Positions 19,671-61,945 of a stretch of 64,000 nucleotides of DNA are shown here, piece after piece. Origin of the DNA: an uncultured delta proteobacterium (GTDB lineage Bacteria; Myxococcota_A; Polyangia; Polyangiales; Polyangiaceae). Numbering within the stretch: the stretch's first letter is position 1; each line of letters starts with the position of its first letter. The position numbers were made by a program, and so were the translations under genes. The stretch covers positions 736,001 to 800,000 of the forward strand of contig CAWKKR010000008.1 in NCBI GenBank assembly GCA_963850305.1. The letters are read 5' to 3'. The notes beneath the pieces were generated by a model. It made no database searches and was not told the origin of the DNA. It saw nothing but the letters and a program-made list of their open reading frames with translations.

Positions 19671-20675
19671 GTGGACGTCAACGCTCTCATCGATGCCATC
19701 GTGCGGCAAACCACGGTGCTCATCGCGCAGCTCGCGACGGCGACGGGCGGGCGCGCGCCGCTCGTCAACACCGCGAATCGGGTCTTCGTCGATCTGGTGC
19801 GGGAGCTCCGGGAGCAGGGCCTCGGTAACAAGGTGATCGCGGATATGTTCGGCCTCGCGCTCCGCACGTACCACGACCGGGTCCGGCGGCTGTCCGAGAG
19901 CACGACCTTTCGCGGGCGCTCGCTCTGGGAAGCGACGCTCGCGTACATCGAAGAGCGCGACGTGGTGCGGCAGGCGGAGGTGCTCGACAGCTTCCAAAAG
20001 GACGACGAGGCCAGCGTGCGCGGCGTGCTGGCGGATCTCGCCGATTCGGGGGTCGTGTTCCGGAGCGGGCGCGGGCCGGCCACGACGTATCGCGCGGCGC
20101 GTCCCGAAGAGCTAGCGGTCGCGAGTCACGGCGACGAGGGCGCGGCGGCGATGCACCTCGTGTGGGTGACCGTGAGCCGGCTCGGCGTCGCGACGGCTCA
20201 AACGATCGCGCAGACGGTCGCGCTGGACGACGCCGCGATCGCGACGGCGCTCGATCGACTCGTGCTCGAGGAACGCGTTGCCTGCGTGGAGCACGGGGGC
20301 GCACGCGAGTATCGAGCGGACCTCTGCGTCATCCCGTATGGCGCCGAGCACGGCTGGGAAGCCGCCGTGTTCGATCATTATCAGGCCGTCGTGACCGCCC
20401 TGTGCACGAAGCTCCGGATGGACTCGGTGTCCGCGGCGCCGGCAGATCGCGTCGGCGGCAGCACCTACGGCTTCAAGGTGTGGGAGGGCCATCCGTACTT
20501 CGACGACGTGACGGGGCTCCTCGCGCGACTGCGGGTCGACGTGAATCGGCTCCGCGAGCAAGTGACGGCGTTCAACGCGGACCATCCGGAGCCCGCGCAG
20601 ACGATCCGCGTGGTGACGTATCTCGGGCAAACGGTGCTCGACTCGGACTCGAACGACGGAAAGGAACGAACATGA
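19671..20675 (+). CDS. Putative HTH/winged-helix transcriptional regulator of an uncharacterised family
   Basis: IDAIVRQTTVLIAQLAT; HTH-like KVIADMFGLALRTYHDRVRRL; wHTH-like VRGVLADLADSGVVFRSG; stop overlaps the next ATG (ATGA). Confidence 0.6.
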   Translation: MDVNALIDAIVRQTTVLIAQLATATGGRAPLVNTANRVFVDLVRELREQGLGNKVIADMFGLALRTYHDRVRRLSESTTFRGRSLWEATLAYIEERDVVRQAEVLDSFQKDDEASVRGVLADLADSGVVFRSGRGPATTYRAARPEELAVASHGDEGAAAMHLVWVTVSRLGVATAQTIAQTVALDDAAIATALDRLVLEERVACVEHGGAREYRADLCVIPYGAEHGWEAAVFDHYQAVVTALCTKLRMDSVSAAPADRVGGSTYGFKVWEGHPYFDDVTGLLARLRVDVNRLREQVTAFNADHPEPAQTIRVVTYLGQTVLDSDSNDGKERT

Positions 20676-22183
20676 CCTGGCGTATCGGTCTGGCAGTGGC
20701 TCTGGCGGCGGCGCTCATCGGCTTCGTCGCGTGCGGGAAGAGCGACGGCGGGGGCGATAGCGAGACCCACTGGCTCAAGACGTGCGCCAGCGATCCGGAT
20801 TGCGGAGGAGACGGCACGTGCCTGTGCAACGTCTGCACGACCGCGTGCACCGTGGGCGGGGCTTGCACTGGGGGACCGCCCGGGAGCTCGTGCGTCGCCG
20901 GAGCGAGCGCGCCGGTTTGCGATGGAGTGACCCCGGTGCCATCGGGCATTTGTTGGTCCGTCGTGGAACAGAGCCGTTCTGACGGCGGAAACGCCAGGAT
21001 CCTTCGCTCGTCGCTCTCGCGCGCGACCCCCGACGACGAAGCGGGCGTGCTCGCCACGACGGTCGCCGCGAACACGACGTTTGCGTTCGACTTGTACCAG
21101 CAGCTCCGGACGACGCCGGGGAATCTCTTCTTCTCGCCGTTCAACATCTCCACGGCGATGGCCATGGCCTGGGCCGGCGCGACCGGACAGACGGCGACCG
21201 AGATCGCGAACGTCTTTCACTTCGCCTCGCCGGCGGTGGAGACGCACCGCGCCTTCAACGCGCTCGACCAATCGCTCGCGAGCGACGCTCCGCACCTCGC
21301 GCTGCACCAGGCGAACGCGGTGTGGACCGATCCGCAGTTTCCGCCGCTCGCGTCGTATCTCGACACGGTCGGGCAATATTACGGCGCGGGCGTCGGAGTC
21401 GTGAACTTCGAGGATCAGCAAAACGCGGCCGATACCATCGACGGCTGGGTATCGAGCGAGACGGAGGGCACCGTCCCGGAGCTGCTGTCCGCGTCGGACC
21501 TGCAGCCAGGGACGCAGCTCGTGCTGACGGCGGCGATTTACTTCGAGGGCTTCTGGGCGAGTCCGTTCGGCCCGAGCGGGACGTACGGCAGCCACTTCAC
21601 GCTCGCAGACGGCACGACCGTACCGGTGCAGATGATGGACCAGACGGAGACCCTCCGCTACGCGGCAACAGCGGACTACGCCGCCGCGAGCATCCCTTAC
21701 GAGACGGTCGGGCAACACCAGTACGAGATGCTCGTCGTGCTCCCGTCGGGAGACCTGGCGTCATTCGAGCCGTCGCTCGACGACTCGCGCTTGAATGCCA
21801 TCATCGCCAGCTTGTCGCCGCAGACTGTCGAGCTAGACGTGCCGCGCACCGACTTCAGGACGAAGCTCAATCTCAGGGACACGCTCAGCGCCATGGGGAT
21901 GCCTACGCCGTTCCTGGAAGGCGGCGGCTTCCTGGCAATGCTCAGCGATCCCGCGGACCTCCTCTACGACGTCGTTCACGACGGCTTTCTGTCGCTCGAT
22001 GAAACGGGGACCACGGCGTCGGGAGCCACCGCGGTCATCGTGGGCGAAGACGGGGGCATTTCGCTCGATCCGCCGCCGCCGCCGCCGTTGCTCGAGCTCG
22101 ATCGGCCGTTCCTCGTCGTGATCCGGGACACGCAGTCCGGGACGGTGCTCTTCCTGGGTCGCGTCGCTAATCCGACGGAGTGA
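20672..22183 (+). CDS. Lipoprotein: Cys-rich N-terminal module plus serpin domain
   Basis: Lipobox FVAC; SETHWLKTC...CLCNVCTTAC; serpin motifs FAFDLY, NLFFSPFNI, AIYFEGFW, VQMM, DETGTTASGATAV, LDRPFLVVIRD...LFLGRV. Confidence 0.88.
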   Translation: MTWRIGLAVALAAALIGFVACGKSDGGGDSETHWLKTCASDPDCGGDGTCLCNVCTTACTVGGACTGGPPGSSCVAGASAPVCDGVTPVPSGICWSVVEQSRSDGGNARILRSSLSRATPDDEAGVLATTVAANTTFAFDLYQQLRTTPGNLFFSPFNISTAMAMAWAGATGQTATEIANVFHFASPAVETHRAFNALDQSLASDAPHLALHQANAVWTDPQFPPLASYLDTVGQYYGAGVGVVNFEDQQNAADTIDGWVSSETEGTVPELLSASDLQPGTQLVLTAAIYFEGFWASPFGPSGTYGSHFTLADGTTVPVQMMDQTETLRYAATADYAAASIPYETVGQHQYEMLVVLPSGDLASFEPSLDDSRLNAIIASLSPQTVELDVPRTDFRTKLNLRDTLSAMGMPTPFLEGGGFLAMLSDPADLLYDVVHDGFLSLDETGTTASGATAVIVGEDGGISLDPPPPPPLLELDRPFLVVIRDTQSGTVLFLGRVANPTE

Positions 22184-22300: not shown

Positions 22301-23980
22301 TCATTCGTGGTGCGGTCGTAAATCGACCCACACGATCGGCACGCCGTCGTTCGCGCCGATCTTGCTGGGACTCACGGTGCCGTAGTCGACCCAGATCTGG
22401 TATTCGACGCGCGCCATGTGCTGTTCGTCGTGGAGGAGCGCGACGTCCGTGGAGCTGAGGTTCAGGGAGCCGACGAGATCCGCGCGAAGGCGGCCATCGC
22501 GTTGCATCCGGTTCCAGCTATCCATCGCCGTATCGTGGATGTAGACCGAGGCGCCCACGGGTGCGCGCGCATTGATGAAGCCTTGCACCGCTCCCGTCGT
22601 GTACCCCCAGAACGACCGATTGAGGCCCAGGCTCGCCCCGCCCGGCGTACCGCCGACGATGGGCATGTAGGCGCTGAGCCCCCAGGGGTGGGCGTGCAAG
22701 GTCATCACGATGGGCCCCACGAGCACCGAAACCGCGAGCGCCAGCTCCGTGACTCGCCGCTTCCACTCGCGCGAAGCCCAGAGCGAGACGAGCTTCTGTC
22801 GCGTCCACTCGAAGCCCGTGCCGGCGAAGAGGCACATGAACGGGTACGCCGTGATCCAGTGCTTCGTGCCACCGAAGATGGGCGTCTCGGCCGATAGCCA
22901 GGGGGCATAGCTCGTGAAGAGACAGAGAATCCAGAGAGTGCGCGTCGAGAACAGCTGCTTCGCCGCGCGCCGCTCGCGGAAGGACAGGGCACGGATGCGA
23001 CGCAGAAACGGGAGCTCGAGCGCGCTCTTTCCGAGACCGAGGGCGAAGAGCAAGAGCGTGATCGTCGGCACCGTCGCCACCGTCATGACCCATGCGTAGA
23101 GTCGCGGCATGGGCGGCCGGAAGTACGTCACCCCCAGAAACTCCATGTTGTAGTATTCGTGGTTGAGGTGGAACGCGACGTAGTCGGCGAGCCGCTGGCC
23201 CGTGTCCGACCAGATCCACGGCCACCCCAGGTAGAACACGACGGGGCCGAGACTCACCATCGTGAACAGGGCGAGCGGCGCGCGTGTGCGGCCTGCTCGG
23301 AGATCGCGCAGAAGGCCTCGAGGCCCGCGCGTGATGATGAAGTGCACGACCAGCGCGAATGGTAGCAGCCAGGCGTTGTGCTTCGTGTCGAGCTCGAGAC
23401 CGTAGAGAACTCCCGTCAGCAGAGCCCACGGGAGCCCCCCGCCGTCGATGCTCCGGTAGTAGGCGTACGTGGTGACGAGCCACATCGTCATCACGGCGAC
23501 GTCGAAACACGCCAGATGCGAGTGGTAGAACATCGCGGGCTGCATCGCGAGGAGCACCGCGGCAACGAAGCCTGCGAGCCGACCGATGGTGCGACGCCCC
23601 CACAGATAGACGGTCGCGACGCCGACGCTCGATAGCACCATGCCGGGGAACCGAAACGCGGTACCCGCTTCCCGGAACACCTGATGATCGACGTGCAGGT
23701 ACTTGTACGAAAGCGCGAAGAGTGACTTCACGAACGCGGGATGTTCGTGATTGTCGCGCCAGTATCGGTCGACGAAGCTCGGCTCGAGCGCGGTCGCCGG
23801 GTGCTGGAAGAGCGTGTCGAACCAGTGCTTGTAGTCGAACGCAGCGTGGAAATAGAACCCCTCGTCTCGCGCGTATCCGAGATTGGACACGGTGTGGAGC
23901 AACAGCGCGACGTAGCCTGCCGCCAGCGCGAATGCGATCAGGGGGTCGACCAGCGACCGGAGAAAGCGAAACCGGGTCAT
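22301..23980 (-). CDS. GT-C fold glycosyltransferase (ArnT/PMT-like)
   Basis: GYARDEGFY, NHEHPAFVK, AFRFPG, multiple TM helices; ATG 23980 coupled to the upstream stop. Confidence 0.8.
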   Translation of the reverse strand: MTRFRFLRSLVDPLIAFALAAGYVALLLHTVSNLGYARDEGFYFHAAFDYKHWFDTLFQHPATALEPSFVDRYWRDNHEHPAFVKSLFALSYKYLHVDHQVFREAGTAFRFPGMVLSSVGVATVYLWGRRTIGRLAGFVAAVLLAMQPAMFYHSHLACFDVAVMTMWLVTTYAYYRSIDGGGLPWALLTGVLYGLELDTKHNAWLLPFALVVHFIITRGPRGLLRDLRAGRTRAPLALFTMVSLGPVVFYLGWPWIWSDTGQRLADYVAFHLNHEYYNMEFLGVTYFRPPMPRLYAWVMTVATVPTITLLLFALGLGKSALELPFLRRIRALSFRERRAAKQLFSTRTLWILCLFTSYAPWLSAETPIFGGTKHWITAYPFMCLFAGTGFEWTRQKLVSLWASREWKRRVTELALAVSVLVGPIVMTLHAHPWGLSAYMPIVGGTPGGASLGLNRSFWGYTTGAVQGFINARAPVGASVYIHDTAMDSWNRMQRDGRLRADLVGSLNLSSTDVALLHDEQHMARVEYQIWVDYGTVSPSKIGANDGVPIVWVDLRPHHE

Positions 23981-24891
23981 CGCGTATCCGCCTGAAAGCA
24001 GAACTCCCGATCGAACGCGCGCCTGGAGGCGATCCGGAACTCGACGCTGGTTCGGGTACCGGCGGAGGCTCCGACCGGCATCTCGAACGGTTTCCAACCG
24101 TCTCCGTCGCGGTGGATGTAGCGGCCAATCTCGCGGCCTCCCACGAGAATCGTCATGTCGACCGGCGCGCCGCGTTCTTCGCGCTCGACCCACCAAGGCA
24201 GGGTGGCGTAGCCGCGGACGACCTTGCCGACCGGAACGCCATCGAACCGCACGGACAATGCCGCGCCCGACGTGGGCTCCGCCCAGATGCATCGCCGGCC
24301 GCGCCACTTCTCATCCTCGACGACGGTCACGCCGACGAAGTGAGACTCGGCGCCCGGGCACTCGAACCGCTCGGCGGGAAACGCCGGATTGCCCAGCAAG
24401 CCGCCGGCGTCCCGTCTCGCGTGGGGATTCCACCTGCAAGGGACGGCTCGCCCACTGCGCTCGTCTGCGACGGTGGCGTCCGCGAGATGATCGACGAAGT
24501 CGTAGGCGACGTGCGCAGGCGCCGGATTCGCGAACACTCTCAGTCGAAATTTTCCGACGCGTTGCTCTCGCAACAACTTCCAGCCGGCCAGCTCCGGGGC
24601 CGACCCGCCGATGATGCTGACCTCGATCGCGCGAGCCTTCGCGGTGTCATCGGCACGAGCCACGTCGGCGAGCGGCATCAGGGCGTCACCGAAGGCATAC
24701 CGCGCATTTGGCTCAGCCCACTCGGGCGCGACCACCACGACCTCGTCGTGGGTACGCAAGGCGGCGACCGCACCCTTGACCCCGAGCCAATCTTCGGGTT
24801 TCGGGGGCCGCGAGGAGAAGTAGAAGTGACCCCCGAGCTCCAACAGTCCGACCGCCGGCACGACGAGCCACAGGAGCGCCTTCGGAACCAT
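23977..24891 (-). CDS. Membrane-anchored periplasmic hypothetical protein in the glycosylation cluster
   Basis: N-terminal TM (LLWLVVPAVGLL), RRCIWAEP, beta-rich C-terminal region; coupled to the GT-C gene. Confidence 0.6.
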   Translation of the reverse strand: MVPKALLWLVVPAVGLLELGGHFYFSSRPPKPEDWLGVKGAVAALRTHDEVVVVAPEWAEPNARYAFGDALMPLADVARADDTAKARAIEVSIIGGSAPELAGWKLLREQRVGKFRLRVFANPAPAHVAYDFVDHLADATVADERSGRAVPCRWNPHARRDAGGLLGNPAFPAERFECPGAESHFVGVTVVEDEKWRGRRCIWAEPTSGAALSVRFDGVPVGKVVRGYATLPWWVEREERGAPVDMTILVGGREIGRYIHRDGDGWKPFEMPVGASAGTRTSVEFRIASRRAFDREFCFQADTR

Positions 24892-24970
24892 CGGCCGAGC
24901 AGAGCCTAGGATCAAAGACGCCTGCGTTCGAGTCGATTTCGGCGGGAAGACGGCGTTATAAAGAGAAAGG

Positions 24971-26590
24971 ATGCCGGACGTGCCGCGCCCGGAACCGGCC
25001 ACCAACCCGTTCCATGCGACCAGGGAGACGCAGCTTGCGCTGCTCCTGGCGGTGACACTCGCCGCCGGCGCCTACGTCATCGTTTATCCGTTCACGCTCG
25101 TCCGGTATCCGCCGATCACCGATCTGCCGTTCCACGCGTCGGAGATGTCCATCCTCCGACATTACTTCGATCCGAAGTTTCATTTCCGCGAGCAGTTCTC
25201 GCTGCACCCGCTCGAGGTGCCGTACCTCTCGATGTACGTGATCGGAGCGCTCTTCGCGCTGGTGGTGCCGATCTCCGTCGCGACGAAGCTGATGGCCATC
25301 GCGATGCTCGCACTCGTGCCGGTGGGTCTCGCGGTGCTCTTCTACGGCATGAAGAAGAGTCCGCTGTGGGGGCTGACCGGCCTCGGTTTCATCTGGTGCA
25401 CGGTCACGCAATGGGGGTTCTTGAACTTCATGGGCGCGACCGGGCTCTTCGCGATGAGCATCGGGTTTGCGCTGCTGGTGGCCGACGAGCCGACGAAGCT
25501 GCGCCGCCTCGGGCTGTCGCTCTCGCTCGTGGCCATCTTCTTCACGCACGTGTACCGGTTGCCGTTCGCGCTCGTCGGAGTGCTCGTCGCGGGCGCGCTG
25601 GTGTATCCAGCCACGCGCCGCTTCGCGCCCATCGTGGAGACGCTGTGGCCTGCACTCGCTCTGTTCGTGATCTGGCTCCTGGTACGGCCGCGAGCTCTCG
25701 GTATCGGCATCCACGAGTTCGGCTTTCATCCCGAGCGCGTATCGGAAATCCTCGAGCATCTGTTCGGAGCGTACCTGCCCGTGAACGGTGCCCCGCCGAC
25801 GCCCGAAGGGATCCTCGAGCGCACTCTCGGCGAACGGGTCCTCGGGATGCAGGCGTTCGCGGTGTGCGCAGCGACGCTGCTCTTCTTCGTCGACGGACGG
25901 GCGAAGAACCGATCCCGGCGCGAGCGGCTATGGGCGATCGGCGTCACGGTTCTTCCAGTGCTCTTCGCCGGCGGCCTGTTCCTCGCGTACCTGACGTTAC
26001 CGTTCGAGAGCGGCCTCTGGTTTTACATCTACCCGCGCGAGATGGTCGCGAGCGTCATGTTTCTGGTCGCCGTGGCGCCGGATCTTCCGCGCTCGTTCGT
26101 CGGACGAGGCGCCTTCGCGCTGTTCCTGGCCGCCGCTGCGGTTCCGATGAGTCGGTTCGTGTCGGCCCGTTTTCTGGAGTTCGAAGCGGCCACCGCAGAC
26201 TTCCGAGAGATCGTGGCGGAGGTTCCCGCGGCACCGAAGCTCTTCTATCTCATGTACTGGCTGGGCGACTCGGCGAAGCGCGTTTCTCCGTTCCTGCACC
26301 TGCCGGCATGGATCCAGGCCGAGAAGGGCGGCGCGCTCGATTTCCACTTCGTCCAGTGGCGACACAGTCCAATTCGGTATCGGGTGGGGTCGCCCGACGT
26401 GCCTCCCCCTCTGCCCCAGCGCTTCGAGTGGACCCCTCAATACTTCGATGTGCTCCAGCAGGGATACTGGTTCGACACGTTCCTGGTCCGACACCGCATC
26501 GATCCGCACGAGCTCTTCGATGCGGATCCTGCAATTCACCTGGTGTCGCACCACGGCTCCTGGTGGCTTTATCGCCGGTTCGGGAAATAG
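24971..26590 (+). CDS. Polytopic membrane protein, probable GT-C glycosyltransferase
   Basis: YPPITDLPFH first-loop motif, WGFLNF, about 11 TM helices, periplasmic C-terminal domain. Confidence 0.65.
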   Translation: MPDVPRPEPATNPFHATRETQLALLLAVTLAAGAYVIVYPFTLVRYPPITDLPFHASEMSILRHYFDPKFHFREQFSLHPLEVPYLSMYVIGALFALVVPISVATKLMAIAMLALVPVGLAVLFYGMKKSPLWGLTGLGFIWCTVTQWGFLNFMGATGLFAMSIGFALLVADEPTKLRRLGLSLSLVAIFFTHVYRLPFALVGVLVAGALVYPATRRFAPIVETLWPALALFVIWLLVRPRALGIGIHEFGFHPERVSEILEHLFGAYLPVNGAPPTPEGILERTLGERVLGMQAFAVCAATLLFFVDGRAKNRSRRERLWAIGVTVLPVLFAGGLFLAYLTLPFESGLWFYIYPREMVASVMFLVAVAPDLPRSFVGRGAFALFLAAAAVPMSRFVSARFLEFEAATADFREIVAEVPAAPKLFYLMYWLGDSAKRVSPFLHLPAWIQAEKGGALDFHFVQWRHSPIRYRVGSPDVPPPLPQRFEWTPQYFDVLQQGYWFDTFLVRHRIDPHELFDADPAIHLVSHHGSWWLYRRFGK

Positions 26591-26737
26591 GGCCCCCGAG
26601 CCGGTCGGTCCAGGTCGAACCCCCCGCTTCTCGCTCTCCAGGCGGCGAATGTTTCATGGCCGTGAGCGTTCATTCCACTTCTGAACGCTGGGTTTGGGAC
26701 CTACCGGCTAACTGCGCCAACCCGCGCGGGCCGGGGC

Positions 26738-26753
26738 TGGTACGCCCCGTGCA
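26738..26753 (+). promoter_or_regulatory. sigma54 (-24/-12) promoter
   Basis: TGGTACG-CCCC-GTGCA versus consensus TGGCACG-N4-TTGCA; GG and GC exactly 10 nt apart. Confidence 0.6.
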
Positions 26754-26763
26754 GTAATCCCGC

Positions 26764-27011
26764 GCAAGAGTGCCGCGGTCCAATCGAGGATCGTCGCTCG
26801 AAAGCAAGTCATAGCGACTCGATACGTCCCCCCCTCCGTGCGGGTCGCTATGCAATTCTAGTCATACCGGTTCGACACGTCCCCCCCCTCCGTGCGGACC
26901 GGTATGCATTTATTCCCACAGCGCGGTCAGCCACCCCCTCCCCGGCGGACCGCGCTGTGAACTCGTCGAGAGACTGAACCCGACGGCCCCTCGCGGATCG
27001 GGCGGTTTTTT
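26764..27011 (+). ncRNA. Putative small RNA with three C-rich-loop hairpins
   Basis: Stems CATAGCGAC/GTCGCTATG (26810-26852), CATACCGGT/ACCGGTATG (26863-26906) and CACAGCGCGGTC/GACCGCGCTGTG (26917-26959), each with a CCCCTCC loop; promoter upstream and terminator downstream; no credible ORF. Confidence 0.65.
26977..27011 (+). terminator. Probable intrinsic terminator
   Basis: CCCGA...TCGGG stem followed by CGG and T6. Confidence 0.5.
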
Positions 27012-27133
27012 GGTGTCTGACCCGCCGTCCCGCGTGCTTTCGCGCGGCGAGGGCGATAGGTTCGCGGGCCCCCGATGAACCTAGTGAACGCCGCAGCGAC
27101 CCCCGCCGTCGGGCGAGCAGGCGTTTCTCCTCC

Positions 27134-27865
27134 ATGAGCGGAGTGGGGACACGGGCCCTGATCGTCACGCCGACCTACAACGAGCGCGACAACCTCCGCA
27201 CCTTCGTGGATGCGGTCTTCCGTCACGCTCCGGCGGCCCGGATTCTCGTCGTGGACGACGCGTCCCCGGACGGCACGGGGGCCCTCGCGGACGAGCTGGC
27301 CAGACGGGAATCGCGGCTCGCGGTGATGCATCGTCCGCGAAAACTCGGCCTGGGGACCGCCTACGTCGATGCCTTTCGACGAGGACTCTCGGACGACTAC
27401 GACTTCTTCTTCGAGATGGACACGGATCTCTCACACGATCCCAGATACCTTCCGGCATTTTTCGCGGCGCTCGAGAGAGGCGCAGACGTGGCCGTCGGCT
27501 CTCGGAACGTCGCGGGTGGCGGCGTCGAAGGATGGGGAATCGGGCGGCACGCGCTGTCGAAGGGCGGCTCGCTCTACTCACGCGTCGTCCTCGGGGTCGG
27601 AGTTCGGGATCTGACGACGGGGTACAAGGCGTTCACACGTCGAGCGCTGCAGGCCATCGAGCTCGAGCGCGTGCACTCGAGCGGCTACTCCTTCCAGATC
27701 GAAATGACCTTTCGGGCCTTGCGAGCCGGACTCCGCATCGAGGAGGTGCCGATCGTCTTCGTCGACCGGCGCGCCGGGCAGAGCAAGATGGACCGCCGCA
27801 TTTTCATGGAAGCCATCGGCGTCGTCTGGAAGCTGAAGTGGGCCGCGATGCGCGGCGCCGTGTGA
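27134..27865 (+). CDS. Polyprenol-phosphate mannose synthase (GT2, Ppm1/Dpm1-like)
   Basis: PTYNERDN, VVDDASPDGT, KLGLGTAY, EMDTDLSHDP, GYSFQIE, FVDRRAGQSKM. Confidence 0.88.
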   Translation: MSGVGTRALIVTPTYNERDNLRTFVDAVFRHAPAARILVVDDASPDGTGALADELARRESRLAVMHRPRKLGLGTAYVDAFRRGLSDDYDFFFEMDTDLSHDPRYLPAFFAALERGADVAVGSRNVAGGGVEGWGIGRHALSKGGSLYSRVVLGVGVRDLTTGYKAFTRRALQAIELERVHSSGYSFQIEMTFRALRAGLRIEEVPIVFVDRRAGQSKMDRRIFMEAIGVVWKLKWAAMRGAV

Positions 27866-27964
27866 ACTGGGTCGGCGCCAAGCGGTCGAGCGCGGCGACG
27901 ATCGGCACCGGAGATCGGATCGGCTGCTGGAGTCGACCCGGACGAGCTCCGGGCTCGGCACCGG

Positions 27965-29602
27965 TCAGCGCCGCACGTACACGTCCATATCGTCCACACT
28001 CCGGGCGAACCGATACTTCCTCAGGACCATGTCGTAGAGCGGGGGGAACGTCCTGAGCGCAGCGTGCGAATCGAGATCGTCGCCAGTGACGAAACTGAAA
28101 ACGTCGTTGTGTTGCACGACCAGGACGGCAGGCCGCGTTCGGCGAAGATCGGAGAGGAGTTCGGCGCGTGCATGCGCGCGTTGCCACGGCGCCCGCTGGG
28201 GAACGCTGTAGAGATAGCGCGAGGCAAGGGCTCGCCCCGAAAACCAGTAGATGGCCGGCTCGAATCCCCACACGAAGATCGAGTCCGTGGACTGCGTCAG
28301 CCCGTCCACGGCCCGCGCCGTGCGGCGATCGGTATCGAGGGCGTAGTCGACCACGTGATAAAGCTCGGCGTCGAGGGCCTCGCGCGAGGGGCTCCGCGTG
28401 ACGAGAAATCGCATGCGGTCCGCGCTGCGTTCCCAGAACGTGCCCGGGTTCTGACGGAGCGCGACGCGTGACGCAGCGAGCACGATGACGACCGTCGCAA
28501 AGGCCGCGGGTCCGACCATCGGCGCGCGCGTCGAGAAGCGCCACGCCTTGTAAAGACCGAGGCCTGCGACGAACGAGAGGAGCGGCAGCGTCGCGCCGTA
28601 ATGGTATTGAAAGAACTTCGCCTGAAGCGCGATGCCGATCACGTGAATGGTGACGATGCCCAGTATGAGAGCGAACCCCTCCCACTGTCGCGCCGCTCGC
28701 GGCGGAAGAGCGACCGCGCAGGCGAGCGCGACCGGCAACAGGTACGAGAACCCCGTCAGCGCTTCGACGAATCCGTAACGGAAGAGCGAAAGCGGCGCGC
28801 CATGCCAGCCGAGCGCCGTGTATCCCGGCGCGAATTCGAACAGCGTCCAGCGGAGTTCGGGCCACGCGCCGCGGAGCCAGAACCAAGCCGCGCACCCCGC
28901 CAGGGGGACGAAGCTCGCGACCGCCATCGTCAGGATCGGGACAGTCGCGGTCCACGCGCGTCGTGACCGGCCCAGCTCCTTCCACGCCACGTAAAGGGAG
29001 CAAGCAACCGCGCCGCCGCCGAGCGGCGGCTTGAAGAGAAACGCGGCGCCGAAGAGGAGCCCCGTGGCAATCCACGCAAGGGCTCGACGGCGACGGGTCG
29101 CGGCGTCGACGGCGGCTCCTGTCGTCAATACGAGCGCGAAGACCGTCAGCATGCCGCCGAACGATTCCGGCTGGGCGGTGTGCCAGAACTCGAGCTCGGC
29201 GTGGATGAGAGTCGCGAGCGCGCCGCCAAGGAGCCCGGCCGTCGGCGAGTCGAACAACGAGCGACCGAGTCTTCGAAATGCAACGACGACGGCGAGAAGC
29301 CCGGCGACTTCCACGATCCGGACGGACACCATGGCCTTCCCGAACAAGGCCTGGGCCGCCGCGTAGACGAAGAAGATGCCGGGGGGTTTGAAATCCCACG
29401 CATCGAGATACGGCATCTTCCCGGCGAGGATTGCGTCCCCGACCACCGCGTAGATCCCTTGATCGCGACCATAGCCGAACAGCAGCACCTGCAGGCATGC
29501 CAGCAGGACGACGACCCAAGCGGCGCGCGCGAGCCAGACGTCGGAAGGTGTCTTCACGACGCCGTCGGTCGCCATGGGTTCCGAGCGAACTACGGCCGCC
29601 AT
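27965..29602 (-). CDS. GT-C fold membrane glycosyltransferase
   Basis: GRDQGIY...GKMPYLDAWDFKPPGIF, AQPESF, many TM helices. Confidence 0.78.
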   Translation of the reverse strand: MAAVVRSEPMATDGVVKTPSDVWLARAAWVVVLLACLQVLLFGYGRDQGIYAVVGDAILAGKMPYLDAWDFKPPGIFFVYAAAQALFGKAMVSVRIVEVAGLLAVVVAFRRLGRSLFDSPTAGLLGGALATLIHAELEFWHTAQPESFGGMLTVFALVLTTGAAVDAATRRRRALAWIATGLLFGAAFLFKPPLGGGAVACSLYVAWKELGRSRRAWTATVPILTMAVASFVPLAGCAAWFWLRGAWPELRWTLFEFAPGYTALGWHGAPLSLFRYGFVEALTGFSYLLPVALACAVALPPRAARQWEGFALILGIVTIHVIGIALQAKFFQYHYGATLPLLSFVAGLGLYKAWRFSTRAPMVGPAAFATVVIVLAASRVALRQNPGTFWERSADRMRFLVTRSPSREALDAELYHVVDYALDTDRRTARAVDGLTQSTDSIFVWGFEPAIYWFSGRALASRYLYSVPQRAPWQRAHARAELLSDLRRTRPAVLVVQHNDVFSFVTGDDLDSHAALRTFPPLYDMVLRKYRFARSVDDMDVYVRR

Positions 29603-29705
29603 CCCCGTGTGGCTGTGCGGGCGCGCGCTCGAGTCGAGCTGACGCCTCTGCTCGAGCTCCGGTCGCCGCGATGATTTTCCGACATCGGCTCGACCGAGCT
29701 TCGCT

Positions 29706-30188
29706 TCAATCTGCTTCCAGCTGATCGACCAGGGCGGAGAGAACCTCTCGCGCAATCGTCAAGCGACGGGCTGGCTGCGACGAGAGCATCCGGACCACGG
29801 CCGCCTCCACCGTTCCGGCTCGGCTCCTGTCCAGGACGGAGCCTCGCGCCGTCAGGTGGAACGAGGTCCGACGCGCGTCGGCGCGATCCTTGTTACGAAC
29901 GAGAAGCCCGCGCGAGACCAGCCGTCCGAGCACCCCGGTGAGGGTGCTGGGATGGACGTGCAGGGCGGTCGACAGTTCGCCCGCCGAGATCCCTGGCGTC
30001 CTTCCCACCAGCCGCAGGACGAGACGCTGCGGTCCCGTGACACCGAGACGGCGAGTCATCGCCTTCGAAGTCGAGCGAAGGGCGTGATCGACCGCCCAGA
30101 CGGCCCGCATGAAGTCCAGAGCCGCACCGAAATCCGTCCCCCTGGAGCGCGCTCCTCTTCGTGCTTTTGGCGAGGCGTCTTTTTTCAC
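29706..30188 (-). CDS. MarR family transcriptional regulator
   Basis: LGVTGPQRLVL, PSTLTGVLGRLVSRGLLVR..DRADARR...LTARG. Confidence 0.88.
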   Translation of the reverse strand: MKKDASPKARRGARSRGTDFGAALDFMRAVWAVDHALRSTSKAMTRRLGVTGPQRLVLRLVGRTPGISAGELSTALHVHPSTLTGVLGRLVSRGLLVRNKDRADARRTSFHLTARGSVLDRSRAGTVEAAVVRMLSSQPARRLTIAREVLSALVDQLEAD

Positions 30189-32606: not shown

Positions 32607-32912
32607 CTCGGCGAGGATGCGTCCGTCCTCGGCCAGGATGCGTCCGTCCTCGGCGAGGATGCGTCCATCCTCGGCGAGGATGCGTCCGTCCTCGGCCAGG
32701 ATGCGTCCGTCCTCGGCGAGGATGCGTCCGTCCTCGGCGAGGATGCGTCCGTCCTCGGCGAGGATGCGTCCGTCCTCGGCCAGGATGCGTTCGTCCTCGG
32801 CCAGAATGCGTTCGTCCTCGGCCAGGATGCGTTCGTCCTCGGCCAGGATGCGTCCGTCCTCGGCCAGGATGCGTCCGTCCTCGGCGAGATCATGCACGTC
32901 CTCGGCGAGATC
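32607..32912. repeat. 21-bp tandem repeat, 13 copies plus degenerate ends
   Basis: Unit CTCGGC(G/C)AGGATGCGT(C/T)CGTC; internal palindrome TCCTCG-G-CGAGGA. Confidence 0.95.
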
Positions 32913-33025
32913 AGTGCCTCCCTCGCCCTCGGATCTGAGCGACCGGGTGCCTGGGTGACGGAATAGACCGGGACCCTTGGTTACAGGTCCGGCTCTGTTC
33001 AATCACAGATTCGGTGCTGTGGGGA

Positions 33026-34486
33026 CGTAAACCGGGTGCCTCTAAGACACAGACCGGGAAGCGCAACGACACGGACCGATCGCGAAGAGACAAAGCCTCA
33101 GCGAGCGAAGACGCTATCCGGGCGCAATCCGGGTTCGGGCTGACGGAGCCGGAGGCGACGGAAGCGCAGTCCGGGAGCGAGAGACGGACGCGGTAGATGG
33201 AGGGGGGCGGCTGAGCTCTGGGCTACGGCCGCTCGAGTCGCAGCTCGCCGTTGCGCAGGAGAACATGACCGAGGAGCACCGGGCCGTAGTGAAGGTCCCA
33301 CTCTTCCTCGTCGACCCGCTGAAGACCGAGCGGCTGATCGGTGAAGAGTGTGCTGACGGTCAGCTGCTTGCCCTTGAACTTCAGAACCCCGCTTGTGTTA
33401 ACTCGCCGCACGTCGAAATCGTCGCCGTAAGCGGGAGCTCGCAAACGCTCCGGCATGGGACGCAGCGACGGCTCGTAGTGTCGCGCAGGCGGCGTGAGGC
33501 CGAGCGCTTCGTGCGGACGATGGTCGTTGTAGTCGGCGCGAAAGCAATCGAAGGCGCGTTGCTGATCAATCGGCGTTGCAGCCGGTGGATTGGCGGTCTG
33601 CTCCTTGAGCGTCTTGTGCATGCGCTCGTGACGACCATTCTGTTGCGGTTGCCCTGGCTCGATGCGCTCGGGCACGATGCCGAGCTGAATCCACCACATG
33701 CTGAGGCGGGAAAGTCCGCCTAAAGCCTTGCTGGCGAACGGCGACCCGTTGTCCGAGCGAATGCGACGGGGCACTCCGAACTCGCGGAACGCGAGCTCGA
33801 ACTGCTCACGCACCGGTCCTTCTTTCTCACCGGGTAGCCCCTCGCATTTGACGAGGTACCGGCTCATCGCGTCGGTGATGGTCAACGGGTGGCAGCGGGT
33901 GCCATCGCCGCAAGCGAAGTGCCCCTTGAAGTCCGTGCACCAGACGTCGTTGGGCAGCTCGGCGTGGGCCAAGGGCTCCGTGCTCGGCGGAACACGAAGC
34001 CGCGAGCGGCGCGGACGCACGAGCCCGTAGCGATCCAGAATCTCACCGATCGTGCTCGCTGCGGGGAGAGCGAAGTCAGCACCATCGATGTCTCGGAGCC
34101 GGACGCGCAGCTTCTTGGGACCGTCGAATGGAAACCGCTTCCGCAGCGTGATGATCCGGTCGACCACGTCATCCGGCGTGCGGTGCGGGCAGCTCTTCGC
34201 GACCGACCTTTGGTCCTCGAGCCCCGCCGGGCCTAGCCGCTCGTACCGCTCCAGCCATTTGTAGCCCTTCGCCCGGCTGATGCCGAAGCTGGCGCACAGG
34301 CGGGTGAAGTTTCCCCTCGGGTCCTCCGCGACAGCCGCGATGAATCGAACTCGCTCGTCCACAATCCGGGCTTCCTTCCACGGCATGGCGGCAATTAGCC
34401 GTCAGCCCGCCGTCAGGCAGACCCGTCACCCAAAAAGTGTCACCCAGGGACCCGGTCTAAAGTGTCACCAGAGCACCCGGTTTGCA
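33026..34486 (-). mobile_element. IS481-family insertion sequence (ends approximate)
   Basis: Imperfect inverted ends CGTAAACCGGGTGC and TGCAAACCGGGTGC with repeated ACCGGG...GACAC subterminal motifs around a DDE transposase; no clear target duplication. Confidence 0.7.
33223..34386 (-). CDS. IS481-family transposase (rve integrase core)
   Basis: MPWKE...FGISRAKGYKWLERY HTH; WCTDFKG, IRSDNGSPF, PQQNGRHERMHKTLK, YNDHRPHEAL. Confidence 0.93.
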   Translation of the reverse strand: MPWKEARIVDERVRFIAAVAEDPRGNFTRLCASFGISRAKGYKWLERYERLGPAGLEDQRSVAKSCPHRTPDDVVDRIITLRKRFPFDGPKKLRVRLRDIDGADFALPAASTIGEILDRYGLVRPRRSRLRVPPSTEPLAHAELPNDVWCTDFKGHFACGDGTRCHPLTITDAMSRYLVKCEGLPGEKEGPVREQFELAFREFGVPRRIRSDNGSPFASKALGGLSRLSMWWIQLGIVPERIEPGQPQQNGRHERMHKTLKEQTANPPAATPIDQQRAFDCFRADYNDHRPHEALGLTPPARHYEPSLRPMPERLRAPAYGDDFDVRRVNTSGVLKFKGKQLTVSTLFTDQPLGLQRVDEEEWDLHYGPVLLGHVLLRNGELRLERP

Positions 34487-40230: not shown

Positions 40231-40302
<72 letters not shown>

Positions 40303-44797: not shown

Positions 44798-44870
44798 TGG
44801 AGCCGAGGGGGATCGAACCCCTGACCTCTAGCATGCCATGCTAGCGCTCTCCCAGCTGAGCTACGGCCCC
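44798..44870 (-). tRNA. tRNA-Ala(GGC)
   Basis: Minus strand GGGGCCG/CGGCTCC-A acceptor with G3:U70; CTAGC-ATGGCAT-GCTAG anticodon arm; GGTTCGATCC. Confidence 0.95.
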
Positions 44871-51100: not shown

Positions 51101-51601
51101 AAAGGGGGCCTTGCCCTTGCCCCCGCGGCTCGCTGCGCGACCGCTCCCCCGCCGCCTTCGGCGGGCTCGTGTTCGCAAGGGGGTCTTGACCCCCGCGGCT
51201 CGCTCCGCGACCGCTCCCCCGCCGCCTTCGGCGCGCTCGTGTTCGCAAGGGGGTCTTGACCCCCGCGGCTCGCTTCGCGACCGCTCCCCCGCCGCCTTCG
51301 GCGCGCTCGTGTTCGCAAGGGGGTCTTGACCCCCGCGGCTCGCTCCGCGACCGCTCCCCCGCCGCCTTCGGCGCGCTCGTGTTCGCAAGGGGGTCTTGAC
51401 CCCCGCGGCTTGCTTCGCAACCGCTCCCCCCGCCGCCTTCGGCGCGCTCGTGTTCGCAAGGGGGTCTTGACCCCCGCGGCTCGCTTCGCGACCGCTCCCC
51501 CGCCGCCTTCGGCGGGCTCGTGTTCGCAAGGGGGTCTTGACCCCCGCGGCTTGCTTCGCAACCGCTCCCCCCGCCGCCTTCGGCGCGCTCGCTGCGCTCG
51601 C
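51101..51601. repeat. 70-bp structured tandem array 1 (6 full units plus 1 partial)
   Basis: Units start at 51120, 51190, 51260, 51330, 51400, 51471 and 51541; consensus CCCCCGCGGCTCGCTCCGCGACCGCTCCCCCGCCGCCTTCGGCG(C/G)GCTCGTGTTCGCAAGGGGGTCTTGA. Confidence 0.95.
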
Positions 51602-61505: not shown

Positions 61506-61945
61506 CTAGGCAAGGGGCCTTGCCTGCCTTGACCCCCGCGGCTCGCTCCGCGACCGCTCCCCCGCCGCCTTCGGCGGGCTCGTGCTCGCAAGGGGGTCTT
61601 GACCCCCGCGGCTCGCTCCGCGACCGCTCCCCCGCCGCCTTCGGCGGGCTCGTGCTCGCAAGGGGGTCTTGACCCCCGCGGCTCGCTCCGCGACCGCTCC
61701 CCCGCCGCCTTCGGCGGGCTCGTGCTCGCAAGGGGGTCTTGACCCCCGCGGCTCGCTCCGCGACCGCTCCCCCGCCGCCTTCGGCGGGCTCGTGCTCGCA
61801 AGGGGGTCTTGACCCCCGCGGCTCGCTCCGCGACCGCTCCCCCGCCGCCTTCGGCGGGCTCGTGCTCGCAAGGGGGTCTTGACCCCCGCGGCTCGCTCCG
61901 CGACCGCTCCCCCGCCGCCTTCGGCGGGCTCGCTGCGCTCGCTAG
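61506..61945. repeat. 70-bp structured tandem array 2 (5 full units plus 1 partial)
   Basis: Units start at 61533, 61603, 61673, 61743, 61813 and 61883; identical units; CTAG at both ends. Confidence 0.95.

Follow-up and report, generated by a model that had tools for sequence, protein, structure and literature searches.

A putative sigma54-dependent small RNA gene with C-rich hairpin loops in a Polyangiales myxobacterium, Pxr-like in its control and loop

The question raised by this locus is what is encoded in the 543 bp that separate a 539-aa ORF, ending at position 26590, from a GT2 ORF, starting at 27134, within the 64,000-nucleotide stretch of DNA that was analysed (the window). The first gene (24971-26590, plus strand) encodes a membrane protein without Pfam family, lies outside the RNA and served as a synteny marker, and the second (27134-27865, plus strand) encodes a GT2 glycosyltransferase and is a downstream neighbour that varies among relatives. 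A membrane glycosyltransferase-like gene cluster (22301-29755), containing two PMT_2 genes, one GT2 gene and unannotated membrane proteins, surrounds the gap. The first-pass annotation had described a gap of about 540 bp with a correctly spaced -24/-12 motif, and this was borne out by a sigma54 box at 26738-26753 on the plus strand (TGGTACG-CCCC-GTGCA, GG-N10-GC spacing). From the usual geometry of sigma54 promoters, the +1 would be expected near 26764. The genome also encodes the sigma54 gene.

The region downstream of the box, on the same strand, was predicted to fold into a series of hairpins. The predicted 5' end and a leader hairpin, SL0, occupy 26764-26806 (core 26768-26799); SL0 has no C-run, and its counterpart keeps a C-run loop in some relatives. 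It is followed by module 1 (26807-26854), a 17-bp hairpin with the loop U-C7-U-C (-22.9 kcal/mol), by module 2 (26860-26908), a tandem duplicate of module 1 with a 17-bp hairpin and the loop U-C8-U-C (-24.9 kcal/mol), and by hairpin 3 (26917-26959), which also has a C-rich loop (-30.6 kcal/mol) and corresponds to the terminator hairpin of the congeners. The three long hairpins had been seen from the first; the leader hairpin is an addition. Modules 1 and 2, rightly taken for paralogues with three compensated differences, also differ by one U-G to C-G change. The CCCCTCC loop said to be shared with hairpin 3 was confirmed, C4-U-CC being present in all three loops, with the correction that in modules 1 and 2 the predicted fold uses the final C of CCUCC as part of the closing pair of the stem. 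The fold of the entire 256-nt region had a z-score of -6.2, and none of 200 shuffles was equally low. Module 1, the source of model R1, scored 74 bits against it.

The 3' end was less clearly delimited. A weak fourth hairpin (26979-27002) and a T6 run (27006-27011) form a possible non-canonical terminator at 26979-27011 (plus strand): the T6 is where it had been reported, preceded by a hairpin of -11.1 kcal/mol and a 3-nt spacer, but it is able to pair itself and was not reported by the terminator scan, so that the terminator must be called weak. The congeners have a U-rich tract directly 3' of hairpin 3 (shortest in L005), and the RNA may therefore end either near 26965 or near 27011.

A DNA search of 40 relatives matched all six congeners and gave two weak matches in other genera. 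The sigma54 box and C-loop hairpins were present in 6/6 congeners, and the number of C-loop hairpins across the seven genus loci was 2, 2, 3, 3, 3, 4 and 6. The TGG-ACG and GCA columns of the box were invariant in 7/7 genus loci while the flanks diverged, and an upstream ATT-CA motif stayed constant between diverging spacers. When the 14 modules of the genus were aligned, 98.6% of cells paired and double changes were found in 5 of 16 stem pairs, a value that none of 500 shuffles reached; among 70 distinct family modules, in an alignment that was fitted to the covariance model, double changes were found in 16/16 stem pairs. The claim of a modular RNA with a sigma54-type promoter thus found support in an invariant box, conserved loops, covarying stems and a stand-alone position. 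A small peptide was rejected as the product, since the C-run lengths differ by any number of bases. The locus is very likely a real, conserved small regulatory RNA gene with three C-rich hairpin loops.

No Rfam family reached the gathering or E-value threshold in the window apart from two tRNAs elsewhere (40231-40302 and 44798-44870), in agreement with the earlier statement that no described family was recognised; the best matches below threshold were ar14 (24 of 58.8 bits), the HDV ribozyme, ar7 and 6C. A literature search, covering part of the relevant papers, returned no description of such poly-C RNAs in Polyangiales. The locus is a member of an apparently undescribed RNA family of Polyangiales myxobacteria.

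A model of the module only, with 40 candidates scored per genome, gave matches in at least 25 of 151 genomes of the bacterial family, including a second locus in the same genome as the window. This second member (L056; G000:C2:168624-168790, minus strand, scored hairpin C2:168624-168663) consists of a single poly-C hairpin with a U-tract and has a sigma54 box of its own some 30 nt upstream, an enhancer palindrome one base shorter and an adjoining L,D-transpeptidase gene. BLAST and nhmmer searches of the genome gave no further copy of the window locus, the C2 paralogue being recovered by the model only. Each of the two loci is syntenic across several genera. The module-model matches, together with three congener loci, made up a set of 42 loci in 28 genomes.

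Searches starting from the promoter, which ought to lead back to the RNA if the two are truly linked, widened this range. With a loose pattern, 101/151 genomes yielded 215 matches, but the pattern was noisy: a hand count of the controls came to about 80 matches, spread over about 63 genomes. Of 150 listed matches, 60 regions were chosen by eye; they contained 68 promoters, and 52 of these preceded a strong C-loop hairpin. A stricter pattern gave 47 matches in 301 genomes vs 5 control matches, and among 30 tool-picked loci, judged by eye, poly-C hairpins followed the promoter in 14/17 inside Polyangiales vs 0/13 outside. Some PxrR-type promoters drive protein genes instead of RNA. Three further families within the order have members, and so does one genome of 1.8 Mb. 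Locus L099 (1432-3437) contains six tandem cassettes with a period of about 385 bp, each with an enhancer, a sigma54 box and a two-hairpin poly-C RNA, and cassette clusters were also seen in L104 and L108. Outside the order, matches to a sigma54-plus-C7 pattern were near control level, and of 10 loci fetched 8 did not resemble the family; one match to this pattern inside the order (L178) was also rejected as not family-like.

All 42 loci found through the hairpin have a sigma54-like box, located by script in 37 and by inspection in 5, where chance would give 0.04 per 110-nt window. The box precedes the first scored hairpin by 25-89 nt, with the distances forming two groups, near 30 and 63-89 nt. 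Five of eight metagenome matches (111-127 bits with RF01812) were kept as true pxr loci; the other three were dropped, not being pxr. Each of the five carried 2-4 upstream copies of TT[TG]CA-N4-TG[AC]AA, and a matrix was made from the 16 sites of these loci alone. With this pxr-only matrix the best site lay at -65 to -69 in 41 of the 42 Polyangiaceae loci, with p<=0.02 against shuffles in 39/42, and scores of at least 10 bits were reached in 38/42 loci vs 1/148 sigma54-like boxes of the window's own genome. The window's predicted PxrR-type enhancer-binding-protein palindrome (26672-26687, no strand assigned) lies at -66 from the -24 box; although none of 100 shuffles scored as high, it is degenerate and, with 8.6 bits vs a family median of 15.8, among the weakest. 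A putative distal half-site (26650-26665, plus strand), also degenerate, precedes the main site by roughly two turns of the helix, and a TTTC/TTGC half-site resembling it was seen by eye at equal spacing in relatives. The LuxO site, TTGCA-W3-TGCAA, resembles the family palindrome, whose spacer is 4.

An IHF-like element, scored against the IHF consensus, was found with three mismatches or fewer at offsets -29/-30 in 29/42 loci, vs 0-2 loci at other offsets, and is also present in pxr loci. The corresponding position of the window (26707-26721, no strand assigned) matches poorly, with 5-6 mismatches. With its weak enhancer site, poor IHF match and weak terminator, the window copy looks partly eroded. 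Two other sigma54-like boxes of the genome, G000:C8:1944826 (+) and C7:907842 (+), have palindromes of 9.6-11.3 at the atypical distances of -42 and -30; they are possibly further regulon members, or chance.

The genome also encodes one clear counterpart of PxrR (G000:C1:301251-302732), with 52-54% identity to PxrR from true pxr loci and 439-471 bits vs 357-382 for the next paralogue. The recognition helices of PxrR and the orthologue are nearly identical (ISPTTLWRKM vs ISSTTLWRKM). In a quick tree, PxrR and 15 Polyangiaceae proteins (12 fetched orthologues, those of L102 and L103 and that of the window's genome) grouped together, apart from 30 other enhancer-binding proteins of the genome, with an SH-aLRT support of 99, the tree being drawn without Myxococcaceae paralogues. 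The C-terminal region of PxrR was single copy in 139/151 family genomes, and its helix region gave matches in 41/48 other genomes of the order and, weakly, in 25/252 outside it. The co-occurrence of regulator and palindrome suggests that the orthologue may bind the latter. A queA-like ORF follows the orthologue in the window's genome, and up to 700 nt downstream of 60 regulator loci no C7 run with an enhancer site was found on the sense strand. The adjoining kinase is a PAS hybrid kinase, unlike the GAF-type PxrK, so the input signal may differ from that of PxrK; a PxrK query of the genome gave kinase-domain matches only (35-41%). In L252, L102 and L103, a PxrR-type palindrome and a sigma54-like box beside the regulator gene drive a single receiver-domain gene, not an RNA; this promoter is at the position of pxr in Myxococcaceae in L252 and L102, and convergent in L103.

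No RNA switch in bacterial multicellularity has been studied better than Pxr, which controls entry into fruiting-body development in Myxococcus, and the first-pass annotation had named it, together with cuckoo/CcsR, as a lead. Of the two leads, that to Pxr is by far the stronger, given the shared palindrome and the PxrR orthologue. Pxr and the window family have in common a sigma54 box (putative in the window, from sequence match and conservation), the upstream palindrome, an orthologous activator, an IHF-like element and hosts without Hfq. The SL1 loop of Pxr is U-C7, and a promoter-proximal hairpin with a U-C7 type loop occurs in the family, a C-run there being recorded for 61 unique family hairpins; in the window itself the first hairpin is without the run and hairpins 2-4 are with it. 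Tandem paralogues, each with its own promoter, are described for Pxr (PMC5568312) and occur in L099. In contrast, Pxr has one C-loop and the window RNA several, the enhancer is at -92/-101 in pxr and at -66 in the window, pxr lies directly downstream of pxrK-pxrR whereas the window RNA is not adjacent to pxrR/pxrK, and the host of Pxr belongs to another order.

The RNA stems showed no significant similarity to Pxr. RF01812, whose membership threshold is 80 bits, had no match at E<=10 in the region or among the 150 of 1361 genome candidates that were scored, and pairwise alignment of the window RNA with Pxr was not significant (p 0.82-0.94). The stem flanks of Pxr were no closer to the family than shuffles were (p 0.10-0.35), model R1 gave a non-significant 9-11 bits for SL3 and 8 bits for SL1 of pxr loci, and, when the C-run was fixed in the alignment, the RNAs of L067 and L167 came out as no more than marginal against Pxr (p 0.11 and 0.03, respectively). 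The essential 8-bp stem of Pxr's last hairpin, deduced from primers to be GCGGCCCG/CGGGCCGC (PMC5684412, Table 1), was absent from hairpin 3, and module 1 departs from it by 1-2 changes in each arm; near-matches to this SL3 core were found in 6/90 promoter-selected hairpins vs 2/202 control terminators, a modest enrichment. RF01812 and a Pxr motif had no matches in phylum samples of 151 and 301 genomes, nor did controls give a signal; these samples seemingly include no pxr carriers and are uninformative on absence. The motif had no match in viral contigs. By the defining tests, the window RNA falls outside Pxr, cuckoo and 6C, yet by sequence comparison it is Pxr-like in control and loop.

Common ancestry with Pxr therefore rests on regulator, enhancer, promoter and loop, not on stems that can be aligned, and C-loop RNAs may instead have been recruited independently into a single old regulon. 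The origin of pxr has been placed in Cystobacterineae, and the RNA is described as having arisen recently within a single suborder, its direct targets being given as unknown (PMC5684412, PMC8538405, PMC11928866). This view is challenged by a family that shares enhancer motif and activator with pxr but belongs to a second order of myxobacteria, the window being the multi-module end of its range. Tentatively, and with more doubt than confidence, we propose that Pxr, instead of having originated de novo in Myxococcales, would be a single branch of an ancient family of poly-C RNAs driven by PxrR and sigma54, which came by descent or by transfer together with the regulator; the Polyangiales members, kept even in the reduced genome of 1.8 Mb, would then be functional counterparts with a conserved target or ligand of the C-run, able to replace pxr in Myxococcus xanthus. 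The family also supplies a testable PxrR binding sequence; none for the pxr enhancer is given in the consulted portions of PMC5684412, PMC10217877, PMC5568312, PMC11928866, PMC8538405, PMC12288465 and PMC8034643. Outside Polyangiales, two genomes of one genus carry an RNA similar to Pxr (L168:3052-3220, plus strand; L169, minus strand, near 1370-1520), with pairwise p values of 0.002-0.004 when the C-run was held fixed. This RNA lies upstream of rho and is divergent from an RNase E/G gene, has no PxrR-type palindrome and is a candidate distant homologue of Pxr.

What the RNA does was approached through its loop. In 159 unique hairpins from 105 units, a set enriched for the window's clade, the longest C-run measured 4-11 (mode 7-8), showing that what has been retained in evolution is the C-run loop and not the stem sequence; the expected conservation of the loop in relatives was thus observed for the C-run. 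CCUCC, which had been put forward as an anti-Shine-Dalgarno signature, was present in 75/159 hairpins and absent in 84/159, and is not supported as the defining feature. Nor was GGAGGGG, the proposed pairing site, enriched in the genome, where this motif occurred 8 times at predicted starts vs 9 and 5 in control windows. A G6 run at -20 to -4 was found for 15/4847 predicted genes vs 8 and 11 in the controls, and G7 for none; these start-site counts rest on home-made gene calls. Thirty of 104 congener matches to GGAGGGGG-ATG were examined, none having an orthologue with the same site in the window's genome, and no conserved candidate emerged when targets were sought by their G-runs in this genome, the congeners and the reduced genome. 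In Pxr, replacing C by A in the SL1 loop abolishes function while the RNA still accumulates (PMC5684412). In a published TargetRNA3 list for Pxr, 23/25 sites use positions 49-87 (PMC11928866, Table S6), which apparently leave out the SL1 C-run loop, and the family therefore redirects the target search to G-runs.

We consider it probable that the locus encodes a PxrR/sigma54-driven, Hfq-independent RNA whose C-runs pair with G-rich mRNA. In the scheme that we infer, a stand-alone small RNA gene would give a sigma54-dependent transcript of about 200-250 nt when the phosphorylated PxrR orthologue binds the -66 palindrome and activates sigma54 polymerase at 26738-26753. The transcript would fold into the leader hairpin and tandem rigid hairpins, each presenting a single-stranded C-run, and may be cleaved at A/U-rich linkers into single-hairpin units, by analogy with CcsR and with Pxr, the latter being known for its long and short processed forms and for blocking fruiting-body development. 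The C-runs would pair, without Hfq, with G-rich stretches near the translation starts of several mRNAs and repress them, and additional modules would mean a higher dose. The working model for this mechanism is the 6C RNA of Actinobacteria (RF01066), which shares with the window RNA its C-run loops, G+C-rich stems and a chaperone-lacking high-GC host, and which pairs via C-rich loops without chaperones (PMC6486639). The 6C model gave 20.4 of 47 bits on the window, and 6C belongs to another phylum and is without sigma54 control. Against mRNA pairing, a homopolymer loop of variable length would have little pairing specificity.

A different function for the same PxrR/sigma54-driven RNA would be that of a decoy, in which the C-loops would titrate a poly(C)-binding protein in the manner of CsrB, with no mRNA pairing. 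Up to six near-identical loops per transcript, up to six tandem cassettes, freely varying loop length and the lack of a conserved mRNA target among the searches above are in its favour. However, 56/105 units have a single C-loop hairpin, which fits a decoy poorly, and Hfq and CsrA, like DUF1127, were not found in the window's genome, which is 94.8% complete. Rho is the best-known poly(C) binder; it was not found in this genome or in 42/61 family genomes, RNA carriers such as G006 included, and with Rho in only 19/61 a Rho decoy was rejected as the general mechanism. We regard a protein decoy as unlikely, if the first alternative to be kept in mind. The same count points to an apparent wide loss of Rho in Polyangiaceae.

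Less likely still is a specific anti-Shine-Dalgarno RNA of the cuckoo/CcsR kind, whose CCUCC would pair with GGAGG ribosome-binding sites. The C4-U-CC of all three window loops, the 16S tail of the genome (CACCUCCUUU), the enrichment of GGAGG at predicted starts (231 vs 95 and 102) and the position of ar14 and ar7 among the top sub-threshold Rfam matches speak for it. The cuckoo/CcsR/ar14 RNAs of Alphaproteobacteria (RF02344, RF02791) likewise consist of adjacent modular hairpins, variable in number, with a repeated C-rich loop (PMC4615179), and the window has the 2-4 adjacent hairpins by which they are recognised. Their loop, in contrast, is CCUCCUCCC, which is absent from the C-run loops of the window; ar14 scored below the Rfam cut-off; and their RpoH promoter, DUF1127 partner and alphaproteobacterial host are all lacking, the RpoH promoter being replaced by that of sigma54. 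Because the shared loop is a C-run, with CCUCC in fewer than half of the hairpins and its last C paired in the stem, the anti-Shine-Dalgarno reading is only partly supported; such pairing may be a clade-specific refinement of C-run pairing with G-rich mRNA.

That the window locus is a relic, a genuine family member no longer expressed in this genome, would agree with an enhancer, IHF-like site and terminator all weaker than in the congeners, but its stems are fully paired with compensated changes, its promoter box is intact and the genome holds a second intact paralogue and the regulator, making this very improbable. The tandem palindromic units, the same-strand GT2 gene and the weak terminator could also suggest a DNA repeat of the REP kind, or else that the GT2 gene has here its 5' leader or an attenuator. 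Both readings are largely refuted and hardly credible: just two loci were found in the genome, both with a promoter, loop direction and promoter are strand-specific, and a leader is disfavoured because the genes downstream are not the same among loci and in L003, L005 and L020 are convergent.

The proposed control has parallels elsewhere. In the Vibrio Qrr RNAs under LuxO, a sigma54 enhancer-binding protein also drives small RNAs; these need Hfq, and the likeness is one of design. The Desulfovibrio DVU0679 sRNA, too, is a small RNA under a sigma54 enhancer-binding protein (PMC3333781).

Other features of the window were a serpin-domain protein with an N-terminal extension (20162-22183) and a 21-bp tandem repeat of 14.4 copies (32607-32925), just before an ORF (33223-34386) that by eye looks transposase-like. 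REP-like arrays of a 70-bp palindromic tandem repeat were found at 51116-51591 and 61528-61932; this repeat has 200 copies in 67 arrays genome-wide, and in L002 the RNA is followed by a copy resembling it. In L031, a tRNA lies just downstream of the family member.
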